64,000 nt of DNA, from NCBI GenBank assembly GCA_964344415.1, contig CAYFMS010000002.1, forward strand, positions 142-64,141. The letters run 5' to 3'. Numbering within the stretch: the stretch's first letter is position 1; every line of letters begins with the position of its first letter. Both the position numbers and the translations under genes were made by a program. Shown piece by piece: positions 14,263 to 51,470 of the stretch. The notes below the pieces were generated by a model. It was not told where the DNA came from, did no database searches, and saw only the letters and a program-made list of their open reading frames with translations. This DNA comes from an uncultured Gammaproteobacteria bacterium (lineage in GTDB: Bacteria > Patescibacteriota > Patescibacteriia > UBA9934).

Positions 14263-14340
14263 TTATCCCCAATCAATGTCCGACTTTGATTGTGGATAAG
14301 TAAATCCGATTTGAGATCGGATCTCAGATCGGATCTCGGG
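14263..14340. repeat. composite palindromic repeat A: TTATCCCCA-N19-TGTGGATAA (DnaA-box-like arms) followed by tandem GAGATCGGATCTC palindromes
   Basis: Directly read: 14263 ttatccccaatcaatgtccgactttgattgtggataa 14299; gagatcggatctcagatcggatctc at 14313-14337. Confidence 0.8.
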
Positions 14341-14388
14341 GAGGGGGGAGTTGCAAGGAGGTGGTTTTTTGCTAAACTTACCGTGATT

Positions 14389-15471
14389 ATGATTATCACA
14401 ACGATATTGGTTTTTCTTATCATGCTATCCATTCTTGTTGTCGCACATGAATGGGGACATTATTTTGCTGCTCGTCGCATGGGGGTGCGCGTCGACGAAT
14501 TTGCAATTGGTTTCCCTCCACGTCTTTTTTCAAAAAAAGACAAAAATGGAACAAGATGGGCTTTTAACTTAATCCCACTCGGTGGATATGTGAAAATCCA
14601 TGGAGAAACGGGCGAGCATAAGGACGATAAAGATAGTTTTGGAAGTAAATCGCTCTGGGCGCGCCTGCTCATTCTATCTGCTGGCGTCATGATGAACCTC
14701 GTTATCGCGGCTTTCATGTTTGCAATAGGTTTTGCAATTGGGCTCCCTGTTTCTACATCTGGCGAAGTTGATGAACATATCATTATTTCAGATGAAAGGA
14801 TTAGTATTGTACAGCTTGTCAGTGAATCTCCAGCTGATGGAGTGCTGAAACTCGGGGATGAACTCGTATCGATAGACGGGCGTGAATTCGAGTCGGCAGC
14901 GCAGGTGAGGGTATATCTCGACACTATTCCGGAGGGTGAGTCGACAGAATTCACCGTATTACGTTCAGATGAGCAGCAGGTGGTGGAGATAAGTCCTGAA
15001 TACCTCGAAGAAATTGAAGAAAGCGGATTTGGTATCGCATTTACCCAAGTTGGAACGGGGAAATATCCTTGGTATCTTATTCCATTTAAAGCCATTGAAA
15101 CCACATTCAATTACACGGTTTTGATCGTATTCGCATTTGTGGGACTTCTTATAAACCTTGTTACGGGATCGGGTGTCGACGCTGCGGTTGCTGGCCCAAT
15201 TGGAATCGCGGTCGTAACGGGCGAAATGGCACAGCTTGGATTTGTTTATTTGCTTCAATTCGCCGCCGTACTGTCGATTAATTTGGCCATTCTGAACATC
15301 TTGCCATTTCCAGCGCTTGATGGTGGACGGATTATGTTCCTCATCGTTGAAGCGATCAGGCGTAAGCCAAATAGCCCAAAAATAGAAGCGATGATTCACA
15401 ATGCAGGATTCTTATTCCTCATCATTTTAGTGATAGTGGTAACATATAGAGATATCGTGAACTTATTTTAA
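14389..15471 (+). CDS. rseP: RIP metalloprotease RseP / site-2 protease (M50 family) with PDZ domain
   Basis: HEWGHYFAARRMG (HExxH), PDZ region, LDG motif (NILPFPALDGGR). ATG at 14389 preceded by GGAGGTG; the ORF extends upstream to 14290 across repeat sequence. Confidence 0.8.
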   Translation: MIITTILVFLIMLSILVVAHEWGHYFAARRMGVRVDEFAIGFPPRLFSKKDKNGTRWAFNLIPLGGYVKIHGETGEHKDDKDSFGSKSLWARLLILSAGVMMNLVIAAFMFAIGFAIGLPVSTSGEVDEHIIISDERISIVQLVSESPADGVLKLGDELVSIDGREFESAAQVRVYLDTIPEGESTEFTVLRSDEQQVVEISPEYLEEIEESGFGIAFTQVGTGKYPWYLIPFKAIETTFNYTVLIVFAFVGLLINLVTGSGVDAAVAGPIGIAVVTGEMAQLGFVYLLQFAAVLSINLAILNILPFPALDGGRIMFLIVEAIRRKPNSPKIEAMIHNAGFLFLIILVIVVTYRDIVNLF

Positions 15472-15473
15472 GT

Positions 15474-16520
15474 ATGAAAGAGCAGCTTGAATCGATAAAA
15501 AAAGAATTTGAATCCGTTATTCGTGATGTAACGAGTTTGGAAGCACTTGAGTCAATTCGTGTAGATTTTCTCGGGAGAAAGGGGAAGGTTGCCGAGGTGC
15601 TCAGAGGGCTTCCCGATATGGCGGAAGATGCTCGTCGAGAGATGGGGCAGCTTGCTAATGAAGTGAAGAGTTTTATCGAAGAGCAATTTAGTATCGCCGA
15701 AATAGACGTTCTAAAGCGTGAAAAAGGTCAGAGGGTTCAAGAAGAATGGATTGATATCACTGCACCGGCCAAAGATCTGGATATTGGACATTTGCATCTG
15801 ACCACGCAGGCGATTAATGAGATTGTTGAGATTTTTGAACAAATCGGTTTTTCACGATCACGGCATCCTGAAGTCGATTGGGATTGGTATGCTTTTGAAT
15901 CTCTTAATTTACCGAAAGACCATCCAGCGCGCGATGAATGGGAAACATTCTTCATTGCAGACGGTGAACAAATCATGAAGGGGGAGAAGGGTAAGGTGGT
16001 TCTTACGCCGCATACCAGTAATGCGCAAGTGAGGCAGATGGAAGTGCAGAAACCACCGATTCGCATGATTAGCATCAATAAAACATATCGACGTCAAGCG
16101 GGTGTGCGGCATTTGCCGATGTTTCATCAATTTGAAGGCTTGCTCATTGATGAAAAAACGAGCATTGCAGAATTGAAGGGCGTGATTGACCATTTTGTGC
16201 AAAACTTTTTTGGTCCTGATAGGACGACTCGACTGCGGCCCCATCATTTTAGATTTACAGAGCCAAGTTTCGAGGTAGACATTTCGGCGGAAGCTGGTCG
16301 TGAAGATGAAAAATTATTTAAAGCTGGCTGGCTCGAGCTTGGTGGTGCCGGAATGGTGCATCCGAATGTTATAAAAGCAGCTGGACTTGATCCAGAAAAA
16401 TACACCGGTTTCGCTTTTGGATTCGGCATAGAAAGGGTGGCAATGATGAAATCAGGAATCAATTTGTCTGATATTCGGCCAATGTATAAAAATGATTTGA
16501 GGTTTTTACGACAATTTTGA
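15474..16520 (+). CDS. pheS: phenylalanine--tRNA ligase alpha subunit
   Basis: 348 aa; class II aaRS motifs FRFTEPSFEVD and GWLELGGAGMVHPNV. Confidence 0.92.
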   Translation: MKEQLESIKKEFESVIRDVTSLEALESIRVDFLGRKGKVAEVLRGLPDMAEDARREMGQLANEVKSFIEEQFSIAEIDVLKREKGQRVQEEWIDITAPAKDLDIGHLHLTTQAINEIVEIFEQIGFSRSRHPEVDWDWYAFESLNLPKDHPARDEWETFFIADGEQIMKGEKGKVVLTPHTSNAQVRQMEVQKPPIRMISINKTYRRQAGVRHLPMFHQFEGLLIDEKTSIAELKGVIDHFVQNFFGPDRTTRLRPHHFRFTEPSFEVDISAEAGREDEKLFKAGWLELGGAGMVHPNVIKAAGLDPEKYTGFAFGFGIERVAMMKSGINLSDIRPMYKNDLRFLRQF

Positions 16521-16541
16521 TAGCTGGTAAGTTGTAGCTGA

Positions 16542-16553
16542 TAGCTTGTAGGT
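16542..16553. repeat. left inverted repeat (TAGCTTGTAGGT) flanking the four-helix-bundle gene
   Basis: Pairs with ACCTACAAGCTA at 16941-16952; additional partial copies (gtagctg / cctacaacctaca) nearby. Confidence 0.7.
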
Positions 16554-16925
16554 ATGGGAACGCAATCACACAAAGACCTTATTGTATGGCAAAAGGCTAT
16601 GAATCTTGTCGAGTTGATTTACCGGATTACGAGTGAATTTCCTCGCTCGGAGCAATTCGGCCTAGGGTCACAAATGACAAAATCAGCAATATCTATACCT
16701 TCAAATATTGCTGAAGGACGGAGGCGCTCCTCGAGGAAAGATTATGCAAGATTTGTGAATACTGCATTTGCATCAGCGGCCGAACTGGAAACACAAGTAG
16801 AAATAGCTAGACGTATTGGTTACATAAATGAAATCCAGTTCGAAATGACGAATCAACTTATCGAAGAGGTGCTAAAAATATTGAATGTTATGAATCAGAA
16901 GCTTCGGCTACCAGCCACAAGCTAA
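16554..16925 (+). CDS. four helix bundle protein (23S rRNA intervening-sequence protein family, TIGR02436-like)
   Basis: 123 aa; characteristic DLIVWQKAMNLV...IPSNIAEG...SAAELETQVEIA pattern; flanked by inverted repeats (16542-16553, 16941-16952). Confidence 0.8.
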   Translation: MGTQSHKDLIVWQKAMNLVELIYRITSEFPRSEQFGLGSQMTKSAISIPSNIAEGRRRSSRKDYARFVNTAFASAAELETQVEIARRIGYINEIQFEMTNQLIEEVLKILNVMNQKLRLPATS

Positions 16926-16940
16926 AACTTAAAACCTACA

Positions 16941-16952
16941 ACCTACAAGCTA
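16941..16952. repeat. right inverted repeat (ACCTACAAGCTA) flanking the four-helix-bundle gene
   Basis: Reverse complement of 16542-16553. Confidence 0.7.
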
Positions 16953-16965
16953 ACCCCTACACCCT

Positions 16966-24047: not shown

Positions 24048-24115
24048 TTATCCCCACCAAGGTTTAACCTTGATGTGGATAACTACCGTTCAAGGTTAAA
24101 CCTTGCTGTGGATAA
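24048..24115. repeat. composite repeat D: TTATCCCCA, TGTGGATAA, TGTGGATAA interleaved with two CAAGGTT(T)AAACCTTG palindromes
   Basis: Read directly between the dnaE stop and the start of gene 24120. Confidence 0.8.
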
Positions 24116-24119
24116 GTAA

Positions 24120-25289
24120 GTGAAATATAATAAGAATATGAGCAGAGCCAGAAAACCTCTTTCACGGTCACTTCGCGTGTATCAGCGCGCGGCTGTTGTA
24201 TTTGTTGTGCTTTCATTCTTGCTTTTGATCGCAGTACTGTACTTATCTGTCTCGCAGGCAACCATTCGAATCAATCCAAAACCGGAAATTATTCAGACGA
24301 CATTTGAGTTATCTCTTGTTGATAATGTGCAGCGCGAGGGCCAAATCGCAGGCCTCCTTACTCAGCAGGAGGTGACAAAGTCGAAAAGCTTTACATTGCC
24401 AGAAGAGGGGGCGAGTGCTGTTGAGTCTAAAGCCACAGGTTTTGTGACGCTTATCAATGAAACAGGTAGCGATCAGCCACTTGTAGCAACAACACGATTG
24501 CTGGCAGAAAATGGAATTTTATTCAGGCTTGATGATGCCGTCACAATTCCGGCAAATGGTGAGGTCATCGCTAAGGCTTCCGCCGATCAACCTGGTTTAA
24601 CGGGTGAGATTGATGCGACACGATTCACTATTCCGGGCCTCAATGTCACAAAGCAATCTTCAATTTACGCTGTAAGCTCTGAAAAAATGACGGGCGGTAT
24701 TCAATATGTGCGTGTATTGACGCAAGCAGATATTGATAGCGCAACACAGCAATTAAAACAGGAAATGCTCAATGATGTCATGAATGAATTACTTGCGGGT
24801 GCAGATGAAAGCGTCTTTGATGGTAAAGGTTTTGGTGTTGAATTGAGCACCGTTCAATCCGATACGGAAGTTGGATCTGAAACGGGCGTATTTTCTTTAA
24901 CAGCAACGGGAATGGTAACGGGCGCGCTGTATTCTACGGAATCGGTAGAGGTGTATGCTACAGATCAATTAGCAGCCGAAGTTCAAGACGGATTTCAACT
25001 TGCTAAGACGAATATAGATGGCTTGCAAGTTACAATTGAACAAACAGATATCGAAAAGGGAATCGCGCAAGCAAGTGTATATATTGATGGAATTTCTGTT
25101 ATTTCAGAGAAAAATGATTTGCTGGATAAATCTCGATTCGCTGGCCAGTCGCCACAAGCGGTTAAAACGATGTTGAATGTCCCTGAAGTGATCGAGGATA
25201 TTTCAGTTAGTTTTCAGCCATTCTGGCTCAAGCGCGTACCAACGCTTAAGGATCACATTAAAATTGTGATTGTAACAAGGGGATTATAA
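24120..25289 (+). CDS. hypothetical membrane-anchored protein
   Basis: 389 aa; N-terminal TM (AAVVFVVLSFLLLIAVLYL); GTG at 24120 or ATG at 24138; DnaA-box-like cluster ends at the start codon. Confidence 0.5.
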   Translation: MKYNKNMSRARKPLSRSLRVYQRAAVVFVVLSFLLLIAVLYLSVSQATIRINPKPEIIQTTFELSLVDNVQREGQIAGLLTQQEVTKSKSFTLPEEGASAVESKATGFVTLINETGSDQPLVATTRLLAENGILFRLDDAVTIPANGEVIAKASADQPGLTGEIDATRFTIPGLNVTKQSSIYAVSSEKMTGGIQYVRVLTQADIDSATQQLKQEMLNDVMNELLAGADESVFDGKGFGVELSTVQSDTEVGSETGVFSLTATGMVTGALYSTESVEVYATDQLAAEVQDGFQLAKTNIDGLQVTIEQTDIEKGIAQASVYIDGISVISEKNDLLDKSRFAGQSPQAVKTMLNVPEVIEDISVSFQPFWLKRVPTLKDHIKIVIVTRGL

Positions 25290-26619: not shown

Positions 26620-28413
26620 ATGAGTAATAAATTACACGCCATGCGGCATTCTGCAGCACATGTACTCGCAGCAGCCGTTCAGAGGCTTTACCCTGATGCA
26701 AAATTTGGTGTCGGTCCCGTTATCGACAATGGTTTTTATTATGACATTCTTCTGCCAGATCCGATCTCTGAAAAAGATTTGAAGGGCATTCAAAGAGAAA
26801 TGATTAAAATCATTAAGGAGGGTTATGAAATGAAGCGCGAGGAAATGTCTATTGATGAAGCGGTTGATCTTTTTTCTGAAATGAAGCAAAAATTTAAGGT
26901 TGAGCTTTTGGATGCGATAAAAGAAAAGGGGACGACAAAAATAAATGCGGACGAAGCTCAGGACATTGATCCCGATTCAGATATTGTGACGGTGTATCGA
27001 ACGGGTGATTTTGTTGATTTATGCCGAGGTCCTCATGTGGAAAATGTGAAAGAGATTGGCGCATTTAAATTATGGAAATTAGCAGGTGCGTATTGGCGTG
27101 GGGATGAAAATAACCCACAAATGCAGCGCATTTACGGTCTTTGCTTTGAAACAAAAGATGAATTGAAGGCATATGAACATATGCTTGAAGAGGCGAAGAA
27201 GCGTGATCATAGAAAAATAGGTCAGGAATTAGAACTATTTACTTTTTCTGACTTGGTGGGGCCAGGCCTGCCGCTTTTTACATCGCGTGGAACTATTATG
27301 CGTGAACAGGTAACGAAATTCGTATGGGAACTCATGAAGCCTTATGGCTATGAGCGTGTGAATATCCCGCATTTAGCGAAATCGGATCTTTACAAAAAAT
27401 CTGGTCATTGGGATAAATTCGAAGATGATATTTTTCATGTTCGAAGCAAGAAAACTGATCATGAATTCGTTGTGAAGCCGATGAATTGCCCTCATCATAC
27501 GCAGATTTTCGCGTCAAAGCCACGTTCATATCGAGACCTTCCAATTCGTATGAGCGAGGTAACAACAGTGTATCGAGACGAGAATACTGGTCAGCTTCAG
27601 GGACTTACGCGTGTACGGTCAATTACTCAGGATGATGCGCATGTTTTTTGTCGAGCAGATCAGGTGAAGGATGAAGCGATGGCCCTGTATGAAATCATTT
27701 CAAAGTTTTATAAGGCATTCGACATGAAACTTGGTATGCGTCTTTCTGTGAATGACCCCGATACTCCAGAAAAGTATCTTGGTGGAGAATCTGTATGGGA
27801 GGATTCGGTTGGATCTCTTCGATCAATGCTTGAGGAGCTTGGGCAGGAATTTGAAATTGGGGTAGGTGAAGCAGCATTTTATGGTCCCAAGATTGACTTT
27901 GTTGCGATAGATGCGATTGGGCGAGAATGGCAGCTCGCCACAATTCAGCTTGATTTTGTACAGCCGGAGCGCTTTGAGCTCGAATATACGAATGCAGAAG
28001 GTGAGAAAGAGCGTCCTGTTATGATTCACAGGGCGGTACTCGGGTCCGTTGAGCGCTTCCTCGGCGTGATCATCGAACATTATGCGGGTGCATTTCCAAT
28101 GTGGCTTGCGCCAGAACAAATTCGAATTGTGCCGGTAAGCGATGATTTTGTTCCATTTGCGCGTGAATTGCATGCGAAATTCATTGCGGAAGATATTCGT
28201 TCATCCGTCGATGATTCAAAGGAAGGAGTTGGAAAGAAAATTAGAAATAGCGCAAAGATGAAGACACCTTGGACCATTGTTGTTGGGGAAAAGGAAGTGT
28301 CCGGCGGAGACTTTACGGTGAATGTCTTTGGACAGGAAGATGACATCACTATTCCGGCTGATGATATTGTGAAGGCAGCGAAAGAGGCTGCAAGTACTCC
28401 AAATGCTTCCTAA
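26620..28413 (+). CDS. thrS: threonine--tRNA ligase (lacking N-terminal TGS domain)
   Basis: 597 aa; begins at the editing-domain HxxxH zinc motif (HSAAHVLAAA); class II motifs; anticodon-binding C-terminus. Confidence 0.9.
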   Translation: MSNKLHAMRHSAAHVLAAAVQRLYPDAKFGVGPVIDNGFYYDILLPDPISEKDLKGIQREMIKIIKEGYEMKREEMSIDEAVDLFSEMKQKFKVELLDAIKEKGTTKINADEAQDIDPDSDIVTVYRTGDFVDLCRGPHVENVKEIGAFKLWKLAGAYWRGDENNPQMQRIYGLCFETKDELKAYEHMLEEAKKRDHRKIGQELELFTFSDLVGPGLPLFTSRGTIMREQVTKFVWELMKPYGYERVNIPHLAKSDLYKKSGHWDKFEDDIFHVRSKKTDHEFVVKPMNCPHHTQIFASKPRSYRDLPIRMSEVTTVYRDENTGQLQGLTRVRSITQDDAHVFCRADQVKDEAMALYEIISKFYKAFDMKLGMRLSVNDPDTPEKYLGGESVWEDSVGSLRSMLEELGQEFEIGVGEAAFYGPKIDFVAIDAIGREWQLATIQLDFVQPERFELEYTNAEGEKERPVMIHRAVLGSVERFLGVIIEHYAGAFPMWLAPEQIRIVPVSDDFVPFARELHAKFIAEDIRSSVDDSKEGVGKKIRNSAKMKTPWTIVVGEKEVSGGDFTVNVFGQEDDITIPADDIVKAAKEAASTPNAS

Positions 28414-32429: not shown

Positions 32430-33152
32430 TTATTTGATTGATATTAATTTTTTAAATAATAATTCACTTTGATGCAGTGTTTCCTCGAGTGCCGTACCGG
32501 TGTCAATCGAATGAACAGATGTTCCAGTGGCTGTAAATATAGACTGAAATTCCTCGCTATGAAAAATGTTCTGATAAGCGATTAATTTCTCCATATCCTC
32601 ATAAATGCCTTTCGACATCTCTGCTCGCTCGCGCTGCCTGGCCTGTGCAGTATCTGGATCGATGTATGTCAACACCAGATGATCCGGCGCATGCTTGATG
32701 GCATAGGTATTGCCAGGGAGTTTCATGACCTCCTCTTGGTTTATTGTATCATCCATATGGCCTTGATACACGATAGAAGTGGATACACTGCGGTCTTGTA
32801 TGATAATTTTACCGGCCTTGATTGCGGGGACGATGAGGCGACGATACTGCATATGTCGGTCGAGTGAAAAAGCATGCGCTTGCTCGATAGCCTTATATTC
32901 ATCTCCATTGAATGCTATTTCGTTACGAATTGATGACCCGATCCATGCCTTTGTTGGTTCGATAGTGAAATAAACATCATAATTGTCTATTTCGGAAAAG
33001 AGTGGAATTGAATCGTGATTTTTGTACCATTCCTGAGAATCAAATGCGCGAAGATTGCTTTGCGTGACCATATCTTTGACATGATTCAATATGGTTGTTT
33101 TTCCACTTCCGGCAATACCGTCAATGACAATAAATAGTCCCGATTTGCTCAT
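32430..33152 (-). CDS. tmk: thymidylate kinase-like (dTMP kinase)
   Basis: P-loop FIVIDGIAGSGKTT; DRSVSTSIVYQG resembles the Tmk DRYxxSxxAYQG motif; sits in a dTTP-pathway context next to dut. Confidence 0.65.
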   Translation of the reverse strand: MSKSGLFIVIDGIAGSGKTTILNHVKDMVTQSNLRAFDSQEWYKNHDSIPLFSEIDNYDVYFTIEPTKAWIGSSIRNEIAFNGDEYKAIEQAHAFSLDRHMQYRRLIVPAIKAGKIIIQDRSVSTSIVYQGHMDDTINQEEVMKLPGNTYAIKHAPDHLVLTYIDPDTAQARQRERAEMSKGIYEDMEKLIAYQNIFHSEEFQSIFTATGTSVHSIDTGTALEETLHQSELLFKKLISIK

Positions 33153-33156
33153 AGAT

Positions 33157-33588
33157 TTATTTACCTGTTGATCCGTGCCCGCCTCGATTCTTATCTCCCA
33201 ATGCGTCTACTTGAGTGAATTCGGCGCGGATATGTGGAACGATAACACCCTGCGCAACGCGGTCACCAGGTGAGAATTTCTTTTCTTCATTCGTAACATT
33301 CTCGAGTATAAGAAATATTTCATCATCATTTCCTGAATAGTCGCTATCAATGACTCCAACGTCATTTCCCATTGTTACTCCGAGTTTGAGTGGCCCGGAA
33401 GATCTAGAGAATACAAGAAGAACATGATTCTGTGGCACTTCCATCGCAAGGCCGGTGCGCACAAGTTTCATCTGTCCAGGATTCAGCTGAACATCTTCTA
33501 CGAGGTGAAAATCAAACCCGGCCGCCCCTTCTGTTTTGTATTCGGGGATGATTGCATCCGGATGAATCTTTTTTATCCTCACATTCAT
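33157..33588 (-). CDS. dut: dUTP diphosphatase
   Basis: dUTPase motifs AAGFDF, GVIDSDYSGND, RVAQGVI. Start taken at internal ATG (MNVRIKK), because the 190-aa ORF has a non-conserved N-terminal extension. Confidence 0.8.
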   Translation of the reverse strand: MNVRIKKIHPDAIIPEYKTEGAAGFDFHLVEDVQLNPGQMKLVRTGLAMEVPQNHVLLVFSRSSGPLKLGVTMGNDVGVIDSDYSGNDDEIFLILENVTNEEKKFSPGDRVAQGVIVPHIRAEFTQVDALGDKNRGGHGSTGK

Positions 33589-33644
33589 ATGCAGATAGCT
33601 TAGCAGATAACTTAGCCATTTTTTGATCTTTTCCACATGTAAAA

Positions 33645-35537
33645 TTGCCCAGAGTGGATTCTTCGCATAAGGTGATCGCGTGGCAGGGAGGGATGCGAAC
33701 CATGCTTGCGCATATGAATAAACTCCCAACAGAATTTACACAAAGCCTTTGTCATGTTTTTCAGGACAAAGAATCAGGCGAATTATATGTCGCCATAGGT
33801 GACGGTCGGCAATTGCCGTATCGTCAATTTATACAGGATAGCGTTTTTCAAATGGCGCGGTCCTATTTTTTGTCTCCAACGAGCAATATTACAGCGGTCA
33901 ATCCTCGTAAGCTTGCTGGACTTATTGGAGCGATGCTTGCTCGCCAATCTCGTGCGCCAGGAACGGTGATCGAAGTTCTTGTAAATGAATTCTTAGTTAC
34001 AGATCCTGATGAGGCTGCGGAATTGGGTGTGAATGTAGGTGATCTAAGAGAAGGGAAGCTCGACGCGCTCATTGAACGTATTCTGATTCAATACGGCGAT
34101 GATTCGGTTCAGGAGCTTGAATTTTCAACGGTTCTGTTCAACTCGGTTTCAAATCTTGCTGCGAAAGCGATTGAGGATAGGCGTCTCGGTGCCTTTATTG
34201 AACAATCAAGTCGCTACGTCTATTACAATCAAAAAGATCCGATCACGGATAGCTGGTATTATTATCGGCCAGAAGAAATACTGAATTCACATTTGAAGGA
34301 TCGGTACATTGAAGTCATGGATGCATGCTTTGAATTGTATGCAAAGCTCGCGGATCAGCTTGAAACACATTATCGAAATATCAAGCCACTCGAGTCATGT
34401 GAATATGCGATTAAGCCAAATGACAAGAAAAAATACCGCTTCAATGAATTAGACAATCCAAAGCAGAAACGATTATTTAAACGCACATACGGTTTTGATA
34501 TTCGGACAAAGGCGGCTGACACATCAAGAATTATGCTTCCTGCGGGGACACTTACGAGTCTTGCAATGGTGGCAAATGGCCGAACCTTCGAGCATCTTTT
34601 AAAGCGGCTCTATTCATCTCCATACGGTGAATTCAAGGATATTGCTCGCAAAGGGCATGAAACGCTCAACAAAGTCATTCCAAAATATGTGAAGCGGGCG
34701 AATCCGGAGGGAGAGAAATTCTGGATGCAGGTTGATGATGATATTCGAAATGATTTGCGAGAAGCCATTCCTGCGGCTATGAGTTTTGATGGTGATGATA
34801 CGGAAGTGAAATTGCTCGATGTGCCTCGATTGATGTCGAGTGACCCAGATGCGCGCATTCACTATCTTGCGGCGGCGTATTTCCCATATGCTCGAACGGA
34901 TTATGGGCGTATTGTGAATGAATTGCGAGCATTGCCAGCAGAGCGAGTTGCGGAATTATTTAGACATGCTATTGGCGCCCGTGAAACGCGGCGTGATCGG
35001 TCTCCTCGAGGATTCGAGCATGGGTATGATATTACGGCGGAAATTGTAGGGGACTTTGGAATTTTCCGAGATTTGCATCGCCATCGCATGTGTACACTTC
35101 AGTGGCAGCGTCCAAATCCGCATCTAGGATTTATTATCCCTCAGGATATTGTCGATATCGGTCTTGCTGATGAATGTCGAGCAGTTGAGCAGCAGGTGAG
35201 GGCGCTTTATGATGATATTTCTTCAAGCCTTGATCCGTATTTGGCCGAATATGTGACATTATTTGGTCACAAAATTCGTTTTACAATTGGTATGAATTTA
35301 CGTGAATCGCAGCATTTGCTCGAGCTTCGAACCGTGAAGCAGGGACATCCGAATTATCGGCGTGTTTGTCAGAAGATTCACAACGAAATGAGGCGTCGCG
35401 CTCCGTGGATTGATGAATGTGATGTGCTGAAATTCGTGGATCATAACAGTTACAGTTGGGCCCGCGCTGATGCGGAAGCTCGGCAAAGTCAAAAAATGAT
35501 TGAGCGCAAGATCGATGATGAAATGATTAATGAATAA
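33645..35537 (+). CDS. ThyX-like protein, long form with two ThyX-like halves (putative flavin-dependent thymidylate synthase)
   Basis: 630 aa. First half carries DRRLGAFIEQSSRYV, resembling the ThyX RHRxxSxxxxSQRY signature. Second half carries LHRHRMCTLQWQ (RHR motif). Embedded between dut/tmk and dcd. Confidence 0.45.
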   Translation: MPRVDSSHKVIAWQGGMRTMLAHMNKLPTEFTQSLCHVFQDKESGELYVAIGDGRQLPYRQFIQDSVFQMARSYFLSPTSNITAVNPRKLAGLIGAMLARQSRAPGTVIEVLVNEFLVTDPDEAAELGVNVGDLREGKLDALIERILIQYGDDSVQELEFSTVLFNSVSNLAAKAIEDRRLGAFIEQSSRYVYYNQKDPITDSWYYYRPEEILNSHLKDRYIEVMDACFELYAKLADQLETHYRNIKPLESCEYAIKPNDKKKYRFNELDNPKQKRLFKRTYGFDIRTKAADTSRIMLPAGTLTSLAMVANGRTFEHLLKRLYSSPYGEFKDIARKGHETLNKVIPKYVKRANPEGEKFWMQVDDDIRNDLREAIPAAMSFDGDDTEVKLLDVPRLMSSDPDARIHYLAAAYFPYARTDYGRIVNELRALPAERVAELFRHAIGARETRRDRSPRGFEHGYDITAEIVGDFGIFRDLHRHRMCTLQWQRPNPHLGFIIPQDIVDIGLADECRAVEQQVRALYDDISSSLDPYLAEYVTLFGHKIRFTIGMNLRESQHLLELRTVKQGHPNYRRVCQKIHNEMRRRAPWIDECDVLKFVDHNSYSWARADAEARQSQKMIERKIDDEMINE

Positions 35538-35735
35538 AAAAAAGGGCCTTGATGGCTCTTTTTACTACCAAAATTCGCCAAAATAATCATATAAGTGTAG
35601 ATCGGCACTTATATGGAAAAAGGGCTAATTTTAGCTATTTACCATTGACGAAGCCGTCATCTTTTGCTATTCTTACTCTTCCTTTACCAATCAGGGTGAG
35701 GATTCACGCGCTAGAAAAAGCGCAAGGAGTTTGTC

Positions 35736-36224
35736 ATGACGACCAACATTGTCACCGACGAGCAGCTGGGCGTTCTCGCCCGGCGTCAACATGATCTTTC
35801 AGGTCGATTCATCGACTGCGACGCGCAGCCTTTCGTCCCGGACGGTTGGAGTGTGGAAGAGCATCGCAAGGGCGGGCTGCTAGAGTTCGATCCTGCAAAG
35901 ATCGAACTCTACCTCGACCGCCGGCAGAAGAGTGGTAAGATCGTCGGCCATTATTTCCGGCAGAAGCTGGTAGATAAGCCTGTGCTCAACGCATGCGTGC
36001 TCGACCACCTGCTCGCCAACACGGCTCTCATCCCAGGGGATTGGAAGCGTGATGAACAGGGCAGGACACGCTATATTTACTTCTGGGGAACGGTTTACCG
36101 CGACTCGATTGCCTATCAGCGCGTGCGTTACCTCTGCTGGAGCGGCGGGCGGTGGCAATGGCGCTCCGGCGAGCTCGACCGCGGCTGGCACGATCGGGGT
36201 CCGGCTGCGATTCTAGCGAGTTAA
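35736..36224 (+). CDS. hypothetical protein encoded by a GC-rich island
   Basis: 162 aa; AAGGAG RBS 8 nt upstream; strong 14-bp hairpin plus T6 terminator at 36294-36335; markedly higher GC than its neighbours. Confidence 0.45.
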   Translation: MTTNIVTDEQLGVLARRQHDLSGRFIDCDAQPFVPDGWSVEEHRKGGLLEFDPAKIELYLDRRQKSGKIVGHYFRQKLVDKPVLNACVLDHLLANTALIPGDWKRDEQGRTRYIYFWGTVYRDSIAYQRVRYLCWSGGRWQWRSGELDRGWHDRGPAAILAS

Positions 36225-36293
36225 GAACTGAGGGCTTTGGGACTTTGAACTTCTGTTCTTTGTCCCTTGACTCTTTGTCCTTTGCTTCGCTAG

Positions 36294-36335
36294 GGGTTAT
36301 GAATGACAGGAATATCATTCATAACCCCTTTTTTA
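36294..36335 (+). terminator. strong hairpin terminator after the GC-rich ORF (abuts the dcd stop)
   Basis: ggggttatgaatga-caggaata-tcattcataacccc (14-bp perfect stem) followed by tttttt. Confidence 0.7.
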
Positions 36336-37454
36336 ATCTTGCTTGAAATGCTTTGAAAGTCTTGGTCCGATTTGTCGATAGTAATTATTGCTCAGCTCGG
36401 GCGCTCCATAAGAAACGGTTGTTGGTTCTATGAGTCTGCTGTACACCATTTGGCAAATAGGCTGGCCATCGCGGAGTATGAAATCATTATCATGCGTAAA
36501 TACTTCGAGTACGGCAGGTGATCCGAGTGTTTCTCCTGAAGTTCCATAGCCAAATCCAGGGTCAAAAAATCCGGCATAATGAGATCGAAATTCACCTTTA
36601 CTGACATCATAAGGCACCATTTCAACGGCATATTCATTCGGTACGCGTATTCCTTCCTTCGTTACGAATATATAGAATTCATCTCTTTTCATGATGAGCT
36701 GGCCATCTCGTGGTCTTTCGATGGGTTCGAAGAAATCGAGCGGGTTATAGTCTCGGCGGCTATAATCGAGCACTTTACTTGTTGTTGGGTAACATTTATA
36801 TCCAATAATTTCTTCACTTGTAAGGTCAATGGTCATGGTGATTCCTTGCGCGCCAACGAATTGAGGGGCGGGCAGAACGGCATGATTGAGCCCGCGCAGC
36901 AGGCCATAGCGATTGTACTCGCTCTGATATTCCTGTGCATTCAAAAGGGCATCGTCCGTAAAGAACATCATTTGATTTAGTCTTTCACCCTCACTGAGTT
37001 TAACGGGGAATGATTTCGGAATAACCTCAAGCCATAATTCACCGCTATATCCACGTGGAGCGAAATCGAAAGATGAAACGCCGTCAACAATAAGGCGAGT
37101 TTGCAAATTCACGCGCCCCGTACTTGATTTATTATTTGTCCGCGCAAAAAGAGCGTCCGGTAAATCAAGCCGTTCATTTAACCTAATCAGATAAACACAA
37201 TTGAGCTCGAGCGGTTGGTCAATCGATGTCTGGAAAAGTGATCCATGCTTTACAATGTCGCGTATGGATTCATGACGCTTTGGCAAAAAGCTACCCTTCA
37301 TTCGGTACGCCTCTGCTGAAATCGAAAGGTCAATTGATGACGGCTGTAAATGCTCTCTCTGTGATCCGGTTACATGACCGGCACTGAGCAGTGTTTCTAA
37401 ATGCTGATACGCAAGCGTCCCCCTCGATTGCGCGATATCTTCTAGACGCTTCAT
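36333..37454 (-). CDS. dcd: dCTP deaminase, long (about 370 aa) form
   Basis: PSSIDLSI and GFFDPGFGYG match dCTP deaminase/dUTPase-superfamily motifs; length fits the long 2'-deoxycytidine 5'-triphosphate deaminase family; pathway context. Confidence 0.6.
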   Translation of the reverse strand: MKRLEDIAQSRGTLAYQHLETLLSAGHVTGSQREHLQPSSIDLSISAEAYRMKGSFLPKRHESIRDIVKHGSLFQTSIDQPLELNCVYLIRLNERLDLPDALFARTNNKSSTGRVNLQTRLIVDGVSSFDFAPRGYSGELWLEVIPKSFPVKLSEGERLNQMMFFTDDALLNAQEYQSEYNRYGLLRGLNHAVLPAPQFVGAQGITMTIDLTSEEIIGYKCYPTTSKVLDYSRRDYNPLDFFEPIERPRDGQLIMKRDEFYIFVTKEGIRVPNEYAVEMVPYDVSKGEFRSHYAGFFDPGFGYGTSGETLGSPAVLEVFTHDNDFILRDGQPICQMVYSRLIEPTTVSYGAPELSNNYYRQIGPRLSKHFKQD

Positions 37455-37486: not shown

Positions 37487-37537
37487 GAGATCCGATCTAC
37501 TTATCCACAGCCAAAGTCGGACATTGAATGTGGATAA
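37487..37537. repeat. composite repeat B: GAGATCCGATCT + TTATCCACA-N19-TGTGGATAA (reverse-complement arrangement of repeat A)
   Basis: 37487 gagatccgatctacttatccacagccaaagtcggacattgaatgtggataa 37537, between dcd start and rplA terminator. Confidence 0.8.
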
Positions 37538-43535: not shown

Positions 43536-43620
43536 AGAAAAGTTGGGGAAGTTAGAAAAGCGAGTAAAGTTGGGGGAATGAGATGCATGGAGGAGATAGA
43601 AGAGATTCAGGAGACTTATG

Positions 43621-43813
43621 AGCTTGTAGGTTTTAGGTGGTAGCTTGTAGGGTTGTTGTCATCCAGGATCTTCGCTTTCGTATTACGATGGATTCCGGCT
43701 CGGAGGCCGGAATGACGTGAAGCTCCTAAATCTCCTTTGTCTCTTTCGCACCTAAATACGTATATCTGTACCATCTGTACATCCGTAACGACAACCTAAA
43801 ACCTAATAGCTAC
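43621..43813. repeat. gene-less copy of the TAGCTTGTAGG inverted-repeat pair enclosing about 130 bp of non-coding sequence
   Basis: agcttgtaggttttaggtggtagcttgtagggttgttgtc at 43621-43660 and acaacctaaaacctaatagctac at 43791-43813 (reverse-complementary). Interior contains the CCGGAATGAC motif also seen at 31465. Confidence 0.6.
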
Positions 43814-43841
43814 GTGCTGGGTACTACGCTATAATGTCCGC

Positions 43842-47088: not shown

Positions 47089-47124
47089 ACTAGGCATGTC
47101 TTAAAGTGAGTGAAGGAGGTTTGC

Positions 47125-47448: not shown

Positions 47449-47469
47449 GGGAAGTGATGCTTCTCTTTT

Positions 47470-48357
47470 TTATTTAACCTTGAAATGAGCGAATCGTGTT
47501 TTCCCATTGAGATCTTCAATAAAGTGAACGGTAGACGATGGAATGTATTTCTTAGACTCTGACATTGTTACATCTTTTTGCCTCGGGTCTATTTCGATGA
47601 GGAGATCAACAGTTTTTGGTAATGCATCTCGACTTTCTGATATCTGCTTGAGCAGTGCGCGGTAATGGTCGAATCCGTCTATTCCAGAAGTAATAGCGGT
47701 CTGTGGCTCAAAATTCTTTACATCTGGATCAAGAAAATCCCAATCCCGTTCAGGTATATAGGGGAGATTTGCGATGATGACTCCATGAAGACTTCCAGCT
47801 AAACTCACATTATTATTCAGAATAGGATCAAGCAAACTTCCTTCAGAAAATGTGATCAAATGTTCTACATGTAGATTTTTTGCATTTTTTCTTGCTATTT
47901 CGAGTGCATCACTGCTCATATCCGTTGCGATAATCGGAAGACGTGTTTCGCAAGCAAGGGTGATGGCGATTGCACCTGATCCGGTCCCAATATCAGCAAT
48001 AAATGTCCCGTCTTTTATAAGGGGGAGGGTATATTCTATTAAGCTTTCTGTTTCAGGCCTCGGAATGAGCGTTGATTCATTTACAAGAAATTCGCGCTTA
48101 TAAAAACCTTTTTTACCTGTAATATATGCAATGGGTTCATGTTGCTTGCGCCTTGATATCCAGTCCTGATAGCGCGCGGCTGCATCGGAGCTTATTTCAT
48201 CTTCCATATGCATGACGAGATAGCTTGGACTTTTTTGCAGAATCTCAGCGAGTAAAAACTGGGCATCTAATTTTGCATTATGAATATCGAATCGTTTCTC
48301 ATGATATGTTTCAGACAGTTCCGATTCACCAAAATGCAATGCCTCGAGAATATTCAT
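47470..48357 (-). CDS. prmC: release factor glutamine N5-methyltransferase PrmC (HemK)
   Basis: 295 aa; SAM-binding DIGTGSGAIAI and NLPY motif (IIANLPYIPERD); adjacent to prfA. Confidence 0.85.
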   Translation of the reverse strand: MNILEALHFGESELSETYHEKRFDIHNAKLDAQFLLAEILQKSPSYLVMHMEDEISSDAAARYQDWISRRKQHEPIAYITGKKGFYKREFLVNESTLIPRPETESLIEYTLPLIKDGTFIADIGTGSGAIAITLACETRLPIIATDMSSDALEIARKNAKNLHVEHLITFSEGSLLDPILNNNVSLAGSLHGVIIANLPYIPERDWDFLDPDVKNFEPQTAITSGIDGFDHYRALLKQISESRDALPKTVDLLIEIDPRQKDVTMSESKKYIPSSTVHFIEDLNGKTRFAHFKVK

Positions 48358-48360
48358 AAT

Positions 48361-49425
48361 TTATTCGGAATCGATATTCTCACTTGCGAGCCGAAGTGCG
48401 GATACGATGTGGTCAATTGATCCGTTCAAAATGTCATCAAGATTATGCCAGCTTTGCTTTATGCGATGATCTGTAACGCGATCTTGGGGGACATTATATG
48501 TCCGAATTTTTTCACTGCGATCGCCGGTACCAATTTGGCTGCGCCTTGCATCGGACTCCTCCTTCATCTTTTTTTCCTGTTCATGAGCAAAAACGCGTGC
48601 ACGGATAATCTCGAGCGCCTTTTCTTTATTCTGTTTTTGCGATCGCTCCTGTTGCGAATACACCATAATTCCCGTAGGGATATGGATGATTCGAATAGCT
48701 GAATAGGTCGTATTTACAGATTGACCACCGGCACCCGTTGATGTTGTTGCTTCGATTTTCAAATCATTCATGTCTAGGTGAAAATCTTCCTGCTCAACTT
48801 TAGGAAAAACGGCTACGGTCGCTGTAGATGTGTGGACGCGTCCTTGCTTCTCAGTGCTTGGAACTCGTTGAACGCGATGAACACCGGATTCAAATTTCAT
48901 ATCACCATAGGTTCCCGATCCAGTAATTTCGAAAATGATTTCTTTCAAACCGCCGAGGTCATTGGAACTTTCGGATGAAATCGATATTTTTCTTGCATTA
49001 TCCTCGCTGAATTTTGAATACATGCGGAAAAGATCGCCTGCAAAAAGTGCAGCTTCATCACCGCCAGCGCCAGCGCGAATCTCAACAATGGCATCATGCG
49101 AATCAAGTGGATCCGGTGGAATAAGTGCGAGCTTTAGCGCTTGCTGTAATTCTGGAATTTTTTCATTGAGCTCATCAATTTCGCTTTGAGCAAGATCTTT
49201 CATTTCTTCGTCCTCAGTTTCTTGAAGGGTCTGCTTTGCCTGATCTAAATATTTTGATGATCGTTCAAGCTCTTTTGCAATATCCAGAATATGACGTGCA
49301 TGATTGAATTCTTGATTTACTGTCTTGAGCTTTTTTTGATCAGAAATGACAGCTGGATCAACCAATTGCGCTTCCAGTAGTTCGCGTTTCTTCTCGTATT
49401 CTTCAATATATTTTTGGTAATTCAT
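48361..49425 (-). CDS. prfA: peptide chain release factor 1
   Basis: GGQ motif ([22 protein letters not shown]) and PxT-like region; start at internal ATG ([10 protein letters not shown]). Confidence 0.92.
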
Positions 49426-49487
49426 AGTCTTGAAAATAATAACATGCAAATACAAAAACACTCGTGAAGAGTGTTTTTGTGAGGTGG

Positions 49488-49799
49488 CTATTTTTTGTGC
49501 ATTTCTGCTTTTTCAGCTTCCTCGCGCTTTTCTTGCTTAGCCTGTGCTCGTTTCGCCTTCTTTTCAAGCTTTGCTTGATGATTACGAACGGCATCTGCTT
49601 TTGCGCCCATTCGCTTTTCGAATTTCTCAACACGACGTGCCGTGTCAACAATTTTCTGCTTACCAGTATAGAATGGGTGGCAATTTGAACAGAGCTCAAC
49701 ATCGGTATGATCCTGAGTAGATCCGACCGTGAATTTCTGCCCGCATGCGCAAGCGATTGTTGCGCTTGAATTGTAATTTGGATGAATATCAACCTTCAT
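49488..49799 (-). CDS. rpmE: 50S ribosomal protein L31 with Lys/Glu-rich C-terminal extension
   Basis: MKVDIHPNY start; CxxC...[10 protein letters not shown] zinc ribbon; about 35-aa K/E/A-rich tail. Confidence 0.85.
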
Positions 49800-49862
49800 A
49801 GTAGTAAAAAGTGACCGAACTTTAACATGAGCAGGGGAGTATGTCAATACAATTGCTCGGTA

Positions 49863-49940
49863 TTCGCAAAATTGTCCACAGCAAGGTTAAACCTTGAGCG
49901 TCACTTATCCACATCAAGGTTTAACCTTGAAATCGGCTAC
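49863..49940. repeat. composite repeat E: TTGTCCACA, TTATCCACA, TGTGGATAA with two CAAGGTT(T)AAACCTTG palindromes
   Basis: Read directly in the rpmE / 50055-gene divergent intergenic region; same architecture as repeat D in the opposite orientation. Confidence 0.8.
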
Positions 49941-50006
49941 CTGTGGATAACTTTGATTTTTGGCTAGGGTAGGGGGAGAATTGTACATAATTTTGCCAGA
50001 TTAGGC

Positions 50007-50035
50007 TTGACATGCCGTTTTATGGTTGTTAAGTT
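50007..50035 (+). promoter_or_regulatory. sigma-70-like promoter (TTGACA-17-TAAGTT)
   Basis: Read directly; positions 50007-50012 and 50030-50035. Located after the DnaA-box-like repeat E. Confidence 0.35.
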
Positions 50036-50054
50036 CCGGTCTTCGGAAAAAAGT

Positions 50055-51107
50055 ATGAATATTTCACTAGTTTTAGCAACAAAATCAAAAAATCTAATTG
50101 AGCAAGCTCCCCTACTCTGTCAGGAATATATAAAAGACGAGTATGATGCATGTATTGTCGATATGTCATCTAAGCGAAGTCGGAAGGAGGATGGCATTAC
50201 AATATTTGGTGCATATGCCGGAATGCTTCATATTCTTTTACGCGCAAAAATTCAGATAGTGCATGTTTTAGGACAGCGGTCAGGTTTATTTGTAAAACTA
50301 TTGTCAGTACTTCGGCCCAATGTTCGCATTATTGCCACGATTGACTCGGTGCATGATTTTCGTGAAATGCGATCTGGCATAAGGCGTGCTTTCATGTCTC
50401 TGAGTGAAAAATGGACATTGCGTTGCGCGCATCGAATTATTGCGACAAATCCCCTATTGGAAACGATGTTGCACGGTAAACAAATAGATATTATTCCAAA
50501 TACCGTACTTCCAAAGCGTGCAGCTTGCGACCCAGTACTTTTGCAGTGTTATGGAATAAACAGCGCGCAGTATGTACTCGCATATCTGCATACTGACGAT
50601 AAAGAGCGATATGATCATTTAATGAAGGCGTGGAAGAATTTAGAAAATGATGCGAAAGGTGCATGCAAACTTGCCATTGTATTTATGGGGTCTGAAAAAC
50701 CTGTGATGCCTATTGTGAAGGATGAATCCATCCGATACTTCTCAAATATCAAGGGAGATGTTTTGGCATCAATGCAAATGGGTGCTCGATGTGTAATCAT
50801 TCTTGATGAGTCAAATGGAGCACTTCCCCTACTTGAACGGTCCTGGAGCTTTGGAAAGATGGTCATTGCGTCTGACTCGGTAACGGATAATGAATATGCA
50901 ATTCAGTACGCAAGTGGGTCGGTGGATCAATTAGCCGAATGTATGCGAGCAGTATTGTCAGGACAGAGTATTACAGACACTGCCGGACATCGCGCGAGAG
51001 TATTTGTAGAAACATATCAACATCCACATGTGATTGCTCATGCCTATACGGGCATGTATGAGCGGCTGCTCATCGATTTGCATGGAGATGTGGCAATGAG
51101 AATATAA
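50055..51107 (+). CDS. hypothetical protein, possibly a glycosyltransferase-like (GT1/GT4 fold) enzyme
   Basis: Start moved to the ATG at 50055 downstream of a TTGACA-17-TAAGTT promoter-like site; weak Rossmann-like similarity only. Confidence 0.35.
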   Translation: MNISLVLATKSKNLIEQAPLLCQEYIKDEYDACIVDMSSKRSRKEDGITIFGAYAGMLHILLRAKIQIVHVLGQRSGLFVKLLSVLRPNVRIIATIDSVHDFREMRSGIRRAFMSLSEKWTLRCAHRIIATNPLLETMLHGKQIDIIPNTVLPKRAACDPVLLQCYGINSAQYVLAYLHTDDKERYDHLMKAWKNLENDAKGACKLAIVFMGSEKPVMPIVKDESIRYFSNIKGDVLASMQMGARCVIILDESNGALPLLERSWSFGKMVIASDSVTDNEYAIQYASGSVDQLAECMRAVLSGQSITDTAGHRARVFVETYQHPHVIAHAYTGMYERLLIDLHGDVAMRI

Positions 51108-51115
51108 AAAGGCCC

Positions 51116-51403
51116 TCATGAGGGGTCTTTTTTTATACTGTCTGGATTTGGTGAAAAGGGCGTATTCTTGATTCTCCATTGCTCGACAAATTGGCCGATG
51201 CCCGACGTATCGCGTTTTTTGCGAACGGTCGTTGTTGATTGAGACCATTTTAATAATGATTCGAAATTAATTTTATATCGTCCATGAACGACGATATAGC
51301 TGATCTCTTTTTTTGCAATAGCGCGCCGTATTGTCCGTGAACTGATACCGAATAGCTTTGCGGCTTCTGATACGGATAGGCGGATAACATTATCAATACT
51401 CAT
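51116..51403 (-). CDS. excisionase-family helix-turn-helix DNA-binding protein
   Basis: LSVSEAAKLFGISSRTIRRAIAKKEISYIVVHGRYKI matches the excisionase/MerR-like HTH pattern. The ORF could start at 51424, inside the DnaA-box-like repeat. Confidence 0.55.
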   Translation of the reverse strand: MSIDNVIRLSVSEAAKLFGISSRTIRRAIAKKEISYIVVHGRYKINFESLLKWSQSTTTVRKKRDTSGIGQFVEQWRIKNTPFSPNPDSIKKDPS

Positions 51404-51416
51404 ACATTCATTTATT

Positions 51417-51470
51417 TTATCCACATTCTAAGTCGGACATTGAATGTGGATAAGTTATATATTTGTCCAC
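51417..51470. repeat. composite repeat C: TTATCCACA-N19-TGTGGATAA plus TTGTCCAC half-site and adjacent TTTGTCCAC-TCTAG-TGTAGACAAA palindrome
   Basis: 51417 ttatccacattctaagtcggacattgaatgtggataa 51453; overlaps the 5' end of the excisionase-family HTH gene. Confidence 0.8.

Follow-up and report, generated by a model that had tools for sequence, protein, structure and literature searches.

How a stretch of DNA that holds no origin of replication comes to carry clusters of perfect binding sites for the initiator protein DnaA is the question raised by the 64,000-nucleotide window analyzed here, the window being the whole of positions 142 to 64,141 of contig CAYFMS010000002.1 (assembly GCA_964344415.1). 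The sites are nine perfect copies of the 9-mer DnaA box, TTATCCACA/TGTGGATAA. These boxes are probably the outer arms of lineage-specific mosaic repeats that resemble repetitive extragenic palindromes (REPs) and bacterial interspersed mosaic elements (BIMEs), in a genome of the Candidate Phyla Radiation (CPR; Patescibacteria, Uhrbacteria-related). In appearance, the repeats match selfish or domesticated DNA of the REP type better than they do a DnaA regulon or an origin. In the nearest relative, the inner hairpin of the repeats, in a species-specific compensated form, brackets a single-copy gene for a HUH Y1 protein that is reminiscent of tyrosine transposases associated with REPs (RAYTs).

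DnaA boxes and the palindromic units that carry them

The nine perfect boxes of the window are located at 14291, 24074, 24107, 37501, 37529, 49905, 49942, 51417, and 51445, and each is an exact copy of TTATCCACA that conforms to the high-affinity DnaA consensus TT[AT]TNCACA. In dinucleotide-preserving shuffles of the window, the mean count of perfect boxes is 0.47 and the maximum is 3, and none of 100 shuffles reaches nine; the boxes reported by the original prediction, which was made from the sequence alone, are thus real. The window sequence was extended to 82.2 kb via contigs that carry identical proteins (project PRJEB17505), and this longer sequence contains 13 perfect boxes as compared with 0.87 expected, about 15 times chance. 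One of the PRJEB17505 contigs with identical proteins is 768 kb long. One-mismatch matches number 26 in total versus 16.5 expected and occur at chance level outside the elements described below, and the excess of boxes is therefore not explained by base composition. Of the four one-mismatch variants that had been listed, three are present, TTATCCCCA at 14263 and 24048 and TTGTCCACA at 49872; the fourth, TTGTCCAC at 51467, is an 8-mer only, with two mismatches when read as a 9-mer. On the gene map of this analysis, all nine perfect boxes fall within about 4.2 kb of intergenic DNA at the five loci originally proposed, the fourth of which is 49872-49950 and not 49863-49940. An origin of replication (oriC), which had already been discounted, is ruled out by the cumulative GC skew of the window, which rises monotonically with no switch, by the lack of dnaA and dnaN among the annotated window genes, and by the spread of the boxes over five loci.

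The boxes are not free-standing. As had been recognized, they are parts of composite palindromic repeats, and they constitute the outer inverted arms of palindromic units of 35-37 nt, to which every perfect box of the window belongs. The basic unit is composed of TTATCCACA, 1-3 nt, an inner hairpin, 1 nt, and TGTGGATAA(GT), and the inner hairpin comes in two types, CAAGGTT-N-AACCTTG or TCAATGTCCGACTTTGA. Units are assembled into mosaics with extra half-units of the form hairpin-N-box and with two further palindromes, TTAAGTCSGACTTAA and GAGATCSGATCTC. All six copies of CAAGGTTNAACCTTG are followed by TGTGGATAA or TGTGGACAA at exactly 1 nt. Three loci (14263-14299, 37501-37537, and 51417-51453) are 37-nt palindromes comprising TTATCCACA, a 19-nt core, and TGTGGATAA; the core common to them is TCAATGTCCGACTT, and two of the three units run on into GTA and GAGATCGGATCTC. 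The other two loci, 24048-24115 and 49872-49950, are homologous composites with the order box, N, CAAGGTTNAACCTTG, N, box, 8 nt, CAAGGTTNAACCTTG, N, box. The letters A to E of the original prediction did not follow coordinate order: its AAGTCGGAC type corresponds to the loci at 14263, 37501, and 51417 and its CAAGGTT type to those at 24048 and 49872. The two copies that it had derived from one unit of about 75 nt are indeed related, but the copy at 37487-37537 is about 51 nt long and shorter than the approximately 75-nt copy at 14263-14337. The elements, lettered here in coordinate order, and their companion palindromes are as follows.

12826-12865: box-less member, located in the divergent LemA/phosphomannomutase spacer; its two TTAAGTCSGACTTAA palindromes, 10 nt apart, pair as a perfect hairpin of 17 bp (DNA fold -15.1 kcal/mol, z -8.5)
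12897-12909: M4 palindrome GAGATCCGATCTC, overlapping the -35 hexamer of the promoter-like site TTGAGA-18-TAGACT of the phosphomannomutase gene
14263-14299, plus strand: element A, 37 nt; TTATCCCCA, ATCAATGTCCGACTTTGAT, TGTGGATAA; begins directly after the phosphomannomutase stop codon (hairpin -8.6 kcal/mol, z -5.5)
14313-14337: M4 pair of element A; two overlapping GAGATCGGATCTC/CAGATCGGATCTC palindromes, upstream of the RseP gene
24048-24115, plus strand: element B; TTATCCCCA, C, CAAGGTTTAACCTTG, A, TGTGGATAA, 8 nt, CAAGGTTAAACCTTG, C, TGTGGATAA; starts right after the dnaE stop codon and lies before the next gene (fold -18.9 kcal/mol, z -7.8)
37487-37499: M4 copy attached to element C; TAGATCGGATCTC on the minus strand, next to the dcd start
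37501-37537, minus strand: element C, 37 nt; same orientation as A on the minus strand, between a terminator-like hairpin of rplA and dcd (-7.8 kcal/mol, z -4.2)
49872-49950, minus strand: element D, the homologue of B on the minus strand; three boxes, two CAAGGTTWAACCTTG, 12-nt insert; in the divergent rpmE/GT4-like (family 4 glycosyltransferase-like) spacer, 25 nt from the rpmE promoter-like site TTGACA-17-TAAAGT (fold -19.8 kcal/mol, z -7.1)
51417-51453: element E, 37 nt; in the divergent spacer between the genes of HTH_17 and an extracytoplasmic function (ECF) sigma factor, starting 14 nt upstream of the HTH_17 start codon at 51403, a start fixed by orthology (-9.6 kcal/mol, z -6.2)
51461-51486: separate palindrome ATTTGTCCACTCTAGTGTAGACAAAT, which contains TTGTCCAC and is conserved in position in the relative

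All units fold as long single-strand DNA hairpins, with z values from -4.2 to -8.5. The 37-nt elements (A, C, and E) and the 35-nt core of element B have fold energies of -7.8 to -9.6 kcal/mol, and the composites have -15 to -20 kcal/mol; none of 200 shuffles folds as well. The units thus agree with the description of REPs as short (about 20-40 nt), hairpin-capable imperfect palindromes. The companion palindromes are likewise recurrent and non-random, as had been claimed. CAAGGTTWAACCTTG gives 8 strand-matches versus 0.11 expected (sites 24058, 24091, 49882, and 49915), GAGATCSGATCTC gives 12 matches versus 2.3 expected (sites 12897, 14313, 14325, and 37487), and AAGTCGGAC is present at 12830, 12853, 14278, 37514, and 51430. 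Across the 82 kb there are 36 perfect 6-1-6 palindromes as compared with 20.4 ± 4.5 expected, a surplus that is roughly covered by the repeat modules. At 26756-26768, inside the threonyl-tRNA synthetase gene, is a near copy of GAGATCSGATCTC, CAGATCCGATCTC, that may be due to chance.

The asymmetric core AATGTCCGACTT (AATGTC-C-GACTT) is common to elements A, C, and E, and the loci at 14263 (A) and 24048 (B) share the unpaired arm variant TTATCCCCA despite their different cores. These shared asymmetries show that the copies are related by descent and not of independent origin. In an alignment of the three B-type copies, the modules are invariant in 45 of 46 columns, as compared with 2 of 12 columns in spacers, junctions, and centers (Fisher p = 1.3e-8). 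Conservation of modules only is typical of mosaic repeats of the REP/BIME type and does not fit insertions that decay neutrally. No target-site duplications were found at the element ends of six copies.

The 82.2-kb extension contains four more loci, at window-equivalent positions 73188, 73583, 75667, and 68821-68878. The sites at 73188 and 73583 are box-less or single-box sites with the paired TTAAGTCSGACTTAA arrangement seen at 12826-12865, and 75667 has a single box and a partial hairpin. The locus at 68821-68878 (L171 16731-16788), element F, is a 58-nt B-type composite with two perfect boxes. In total, 11 loci are present in the 82 kb, 8 of them with boxes and 10 of them extragenic. The claim that the boxes are solely intergenic is thus correct inside the window and fails 4.8 kb past its end, where element F lies in frame within an intact gene for a 527-aa PMT_2 glycosyltransferase (L171 15959-17542, window-equivalent 68049-69632) and is translated as PRLNLDVDNPDSRLNLDVDK. 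Both flanks of this protein align with 15 homologues, and the peptide repeat PRLNLDVDNPDSRLNLDVDK is found in none of the 15. It is located in a loop that is no longer than in the homologues and whose length varies across the PMT_2 family, and a clean insertion of 22 codons is therefore not demonstrable.

The nearest named homologues of the window proteins belong to Candidatus Uhrbacteria and Patescibacteria, and the gene content, which includes 23S-rRNA-IVP genes, DUF5671, DUF3048, and many housekeeping genes, fits a CPR genome. The genes named in the original prediction (rseP, dnaE, dcd, rplA, rpmE/prfA, the GT4-like gene, HTH_17, and the ECF sigma factor) were called correctly. No known RNA families (Rfam), tRNA, or tmRNA were found in the window, and no transposase is present among the approximately 50 open reading frames (ORFs) scanned. 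Positions 32430-37454 hold a compact deoxynucleotide cluster of thymidylate kinase, dUTPase, Thy1 (ThyX), and dCTP deaminase; the ORF with the Thy1 (ThyX) domain is 630 aa long (611 aa in the gene call), the dCTP deaminase is long (373 aa), and a 162-aa ORF of the cluster has no Pfam match. A second repeat family, with AGCTTGTAGG/CCTACAAGCT as inverted motifs, is found on either side of the 23S-rRNA-IVP gene at 16554-16925 (16521-16553 and 16926-16965) and again at 43615-43660 and 43790-43830, in a spacer (43536-43841) with no IVP ORF. These motifs give 6 matches versus 1.7 expected, and the 43536-43841 spacer may represent a cassette that is empty or degraded. The DNA immediately upstream of the window (L169 1-2586) contains repeated tRNA-like stretches, in which GGCGGAGAGGGAGGGA...TTCGAACCC occurs several times.

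The nearest relative and its Y1 transposase-like gene

The nearest relative, with 81% identity in phosphomannomutase, is represented by loci L161 and L166-L168 (one assembly, NCBI GCA_964462325.1), and its intergenic DNA carries the same type of mosaic. The stems differ from those of the window genome on both sides at once. GAGGTTSAACCTC is found in place of AAGGTTWAACCTT (AAGGTT..AACCTT becoming GAGGTT..AACCTC), and AAGTCSGACTT is replaced by AGGTCSGACCT (AAGTC..GACTT becoming AGGTC..GACCT). The box is again placed 1 nt from the hairpin and is either the unchanged TGTGGATAAG or the consensus-compatible variant TTATACACA. In 22 units taken from the two genomes, pairing holds for 92.9% of cells, and changes on both sides are seen in 29 cells, a level that none of 500 shuffles reaches; these units were chosen with a partly palindromic pattern, so that only its free positions count as evidence of pairing. 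Perfect boxes are few in the relative (2 in about 41 kb), and most of its hairpin modules have none.

Conservation of the boxes in orthologous spacers had been proposed as a check, and it was compared in four spacers, the rplA-dcd spacer and the one downstream of dnaE being left out. A perfect box is kept in one of the four, upstream of the GT4 orthologue, together with half a hairpin (L167 9034). A second, the spacer between HTH_17 and the sigma factor, retains only a degraded version, TTGTCCACA-N13-TGTGATTGT, at the place of element E. No box is present in the rpmE spacer of the relative or in the flanks of its phosphomannomutase gene, either upstream or towards rseP. Box-less sequence is shared upstream of that gene: a 15-mer of the palindromic pair at 12826-12865 also precedes the orthologue (L161 9880), and TTAAGTCCGACTTAA is present upstream of the gene in both species.

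Other features of these relative loci were observed alongside the repeats. In the HTH_17/ECF-sigma spacer, the palindrome (A)TGTCYACTCTAGYGTAGACAAA is common to both species (window 51461-51486, L167 10838-10862), and a sigma promoter-like sequence, TTGYAAAA...AGTAATTT, is kept alongside it; this palindrome is probably a local operator and not a member of the repeat family. L167 10195-10445 and L168 11643-11960 have identical flanks and differ by whole 21-nt GGAGGTTGAACCTCGGATTGG units (one stretch with scaffold Ns), either as a real copy-number polymorphism or through assembly collapse of the repeat. Around the phosphomannomutase gene, the relative has, compared with the window, an extra DndB-like gene and a small ORF upstream (L161 8387-9944) and an extra Asp/Glu racemase gene and a small ORF downstream (L161 11331-12343), which marks the spacer as a hotspot of gene gain and loss. 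In L166 (2641-5625), the gyrB gene call is split into two fragments (246 and 339 aa), and unrelated small ORFs lie between the fragments and around them; an insertion, intein-like interruption, or misassembly could explain the split.

The relative also carries a gene for a 197-aa Y1_Tnp (IS200-like) protein, at L175 484-1077, on an 8.3-kb contig that was found via its PMT_2 orthologue. The Y1_Tnp Pfam score is 35.4 bits (gathering threshold 23), and the sole NCBIfam match is "REP-associated tyrosine transposase" (REP_Tyr_transpos), with E = 4e-10. The protein has HYH and YIHLN motifs. It has no match by sequence in the PDB, and neither Bac_DnaA_C nor any other domain is detectable in its C terminus. 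The Y1 gene is bracketed by all seven GAGGTTSAACCTC copies of the contig, with three on its upstream side and four on its downstream side. These copies are contained in a 52-nt direct repeat, and the last copy is followed by TGTGTATAA at 1 nt. The same locus and flanks are observed in six loci from at least five samples (L175-L180), one of which is also the source of L161 and L168, and L180 has two fewer downstream units (2 versus 4). The Y1 gene is single-copy and is located between two GT4 genes orthologous to those of the window genome (68% identity), where the corresponding gap is 46 nt and empty. A tblastn search with the protein over all loci of this analysis, including the 82 kb of the window genome, matched the relative only.

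The distribution of the family beyond this pair was scanned with a 24-nt degenerate pattern that covers both unit types and has five matches in the window. Among 185,579 species-representative genomes there are 12 single matches versus about 13 expected by our own estimate, and JGI metagenomes give 25 single matches; all in both sets are chimeric and of the chance type. Viral contigs have no match to this pattern, and the at least 120 matches that they give to a general inverted-pair pattern are unrelated and uninformative. The scanned collections do not include the window genome itself. Two syntenic relatives at a greater distance do not carry the family: L173, with 59% identity in phosphomannomutase, and L174, the Uhrbacteria metagenome-assembled genome GCA_018673485.1. 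On these sequence comparisons, the family is restricted to the window species and its nearest relative and is not widespread. L174 has at 7-45 a hairpin, TGTGGATAG-AGGTTGAAC-ATCTGTCCACA, with box-like arms around half a hairpin module, which may be a diverged, low-copy relative of the repeats, and at 6506-7468 a gene of the IS30 type (HTH_38 and rve). A literature search that combined DnaA box with Patescibacteria, REP, and miniature inverted-repeat transposable element (MITE), and CPR with palindromic repeats, returned no description of such elements.

Repeat family, binding sites, or both

Of the four roles offered by the original prediction, a mobile miniature repeat family is the best supported, by the intragenic copy, the shared asymmetries, the lineage restriction, and the RAYT-like link in the relative. 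The units would spread and be maintained as single-stranded DNA hairpins processed by a Y1/HUH enzyme, as in the REP/REPIN-RAYT systems, and the box would be the conserved flanking motif of the unit. Because the box equals the universal DnaA consensus, the repeats probably also bind DnaA or a protein similar to DnaA domain IV, and DnaA binding at the arms is plausible on the basis of this match. Effects on neighboring promoters or on free DnaA would then be a by-product or a secondary co-option and not the reason for the 9-mers; titration of DnaA is a possible consequence of the repeats. A more far-reaching proposal, which is doubtful, is that this CPR genome of less than about 1 Mb has a REP family with DnaA-box arms in which DnaA, or a Y1 protein with a helix-turn-helix like that of DnaA domain IV, would load or target the HUH enzyme, or in which a hundred-odd copies would act as a DnaA buffer that ties initiation to repeat load.

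Several observations weigh against a REP/BIME-like origin. The RAYT-like protein scores below the NCBIfam curated cutoff (39.7 versus 80 bits). No RAYT is present in the 82 kb of the window genome, so the link rests on the relative, where the arrays that flank the gene are direct repeats and not the classical inverted arrangement. Most of the units in these arrays have no box, and the box may therefore be a separate module and not part of enzyme recognition. The canonical REP tetranucleotide GT[AG]G is absent at a fixed position, and TGTGGATAA is found 1 nt from the hairpin instead. The copy-number differences between assemblies could be assembly artefacts. Finally, the box kept upstream of the GT4 orthologue in both species also fits selected binding sites, and module-only conservation is also what selection on protein-binding sites would give.

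These last two points lead to the explanation that the original prediction had favored, a DnaA regulon with dcd as a classic target. Here, the repeats would be a cis-regulatory network in which DnaA operators and palindromes for dimeric transcription factors have been shuffled before dcd, rseP, rpmE, and the ECF sigma gene. The perfect match to the DnaA consensus, the conservation of modules but not spacers, the free central base of the palindromes, as expected for dimer sites, and the sequences kept in both species upstream of the phosphomannomutase gene (TTAAGTCCGACTTAA) and the GT4 gene all agree with such a network. Some modules also overlap promoter-like hexamers, with GAGATCCGATCTC over TTGAGA at 12895 and a box in a possible TTGCTG-17-TATAAT at 24102-24130; matches in the promoter and terminator scans are not above chance, and these overlaps are therefore only suggestive. 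The geometry with respect to promoters is inconsistent, the elements being found upstream, within the spacer, in a 5' leader, or directly after stop codons, and one copy is inside a coding gene. The asymmetric variants that are shared point to copying and not to convergence, the compensated stem substitutions between close relatives would require co-evolution of the transcription factor, and the inner module flanks a transposase-like gene. With a perfect box kept in one of four comparable orthologous spacers, and none in the relative's rpmE spacer or in those that flank phosphomannomutase, a regulon is unlikely. A dispersed DnaA sink in the style of datA or the Bacillus clusters, in which about one box pair per 6-10 kb would buffer DnaA in a genome of less than about 1 Mb whatever the origin of the repeats, has in its favor the 13 consensus boxes of the 82 kb, which invariably come as pairs or triplets, and the fact that the 9-mer is the one module unchanged between the two species. 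In addition, the Kd of E. coli DnaA for one consensus box is 30-50 nM (cited in PMC3347997). The scarcity of perfect boxes in the relative, where most hairpin modules have none, and their absence from the more distant relatives, which shows that the trait is not conserved in the clade, make a sink improbable as the reason why the repeats are kept.

The remaining explanations accept the elements as mobile or as transcribed structures. A MITE family derived from an insertion sequence (IS) of the DDE type, with DnaA boxes in its terminal repeats and mobilized in trans, would account for units with terminal inverted 9-mers. The relative's TTATACACA variant is a box form that we take to be that of the Tn5 outside end. 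Both the outside and mosaic ends of Tn5 hold a DnaA site, and DnaA is a host factor of this element (PMC3347997). The six copies have no target-site duplications, the units of 37-79 nt are far shorter than typical MITEs, and the 82 kb and the loci of the relatives hold no DDE transposase or IS with such ends. Of transposase-like genes, only one of the Y1/HUH type is tied to the modules, which makes a DDE-derived family very improbable. Elements that act at the RNA level, as terminators, 3'-end stabilizers, or 5'-leader structures, would be consistent with the strong hairpins of all units, with the start of A and B right after stop codons, and with the position of E in the HTH_17 leader. No U-tract follows the hairpins, and genuine terminator-like hairpins adjoin element C and G2 and are not within them. 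With no Rfam match, with D between divergent promoters and F inside a gene, and with a family that is symmetric on both strands, a role in RNA is scarcely probable at all.

Comparison with known repeat systems

Most of what is known of REP and BIME repeats and of RAYT enzymes comes from Proteobacteria, and CPR genomes are usually regarded as streamlined. A literature search found no paper that describes a REP/RAYT system in the CPR. Each REP family has its tnpA-REP gene, which is usually single-copy and has REPs of that family on its flanks, an arrangement termed the REPtron (PMC6006769). Similar to the REP/REPIN-RAYT systems of E. coli, Pseudomonas, and Stenotrophomonas (PMC6006769), the repeats described here are species-specific imperfect palindromes, about 35 nt in length, and most of their dispersed copies are extragenic. 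Their stems co-vary between relatives, a conserved motif is placed at a fixed 1 nt from the foot of the hairpin, and the relative has a single-copy Y1/HUH gene at a fixed locus with arrays of hairpin modules on both sides. The main differences are that GT[AG]G is replaced by a flanking motif of 9-11 nt with the DnaA-box consensus, that the flanking arrays of the relative are direct and not inverted, that its Y1 protein falls under the curated cutoff of the RAYT model, and that the host is a CPR bacterium, with the RAYT-like gene seen in the relative and not in the 82 kb of the window genome. GT[AG]G is likewise missing from REPs of classes 2.6 and 3 (PMC6006769).

The mosaic architecture is also shared with other palindromic repeats. 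BIMEs, including the IHF-binding RIP/BIME-1 elements of E. coli, are mosaics of alternating palindromic units joined by short motifs. As in BIMEs, modules are conserved and linkers are variable, and the consensus site of a host DNA-binding protein is built into the repeat; here, this site is a DnaA box instead of an IHF site, and it forms the palindrome arms themselves. Precedents for host-protein sites in repeats and mobile elements include REPs as IHF-binding sites (mentioned in PMC6006769), the IHF site of the Correia elements (PMC10969869), and the DnaA site in the ends of Tn5 (PMC3347997). The outside and mosaic ends of IS50/Tn5 are similar in that a terminus has a single DnaA box to which DnaA binds, with an influence on transposition (PMC3347997). 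IS50/Tn5 differs in being a transposon of the DDE type, with ends of 19 bp and target duplications of 9 bp, whereas the units described here are hairpins with neither duplications nor a DDE enzyme. The palindromic elements of Rickettsia (RPEs) can be found in frame in intact genes of a reduced genome, where they add a peptide segment (PMC10969869). Element F resembles them as a palindromic repeat in frame inside an intact protein gene of a reduced genome; RPEs are about 150 bp long and mostly intragenic, whereas 1 of the 11 loci is intragenic here and the units span 35-79 nt.

Clusters of DnaA boxes outside oriC, such as datA and DARS of E. coli and the six clusters of B. subtilis, are few per genome, unique in sequence, and fixed in position. 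They resemble the present loci in that two or three consensus boxes are grouped in intergenic DNA at a distance from the origin, and they are not a copied repeat family with inner hairpins. For annotation, this comparison means that clusters of perfect DnaA boxes alone are not evidence of an origin or of a DnaA regulon. A REP family with a DnaA-box arm, if true, would provide a natural test of whether HUH/Y1 enzymes use the initiator or a DnaA-like domain to find their substrates and of whether repeats measurably titrate DnaA in a very small genome. The Y1 proteins of subclass 2.1.2, which have a C-terminal domain like Bac_DnaA_C and for which no DnaA-box-like repeats are known (PMC6006769), tie the Y1/HUH family to recognition of the DnaA-box type; unlike them, the RAYT-like protein of the relative has no detectable Bac_DnaA_C domain. 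Among all of these systems, the perfect DnaA-box arms make the present family an unusual REP/BIME-like variant.

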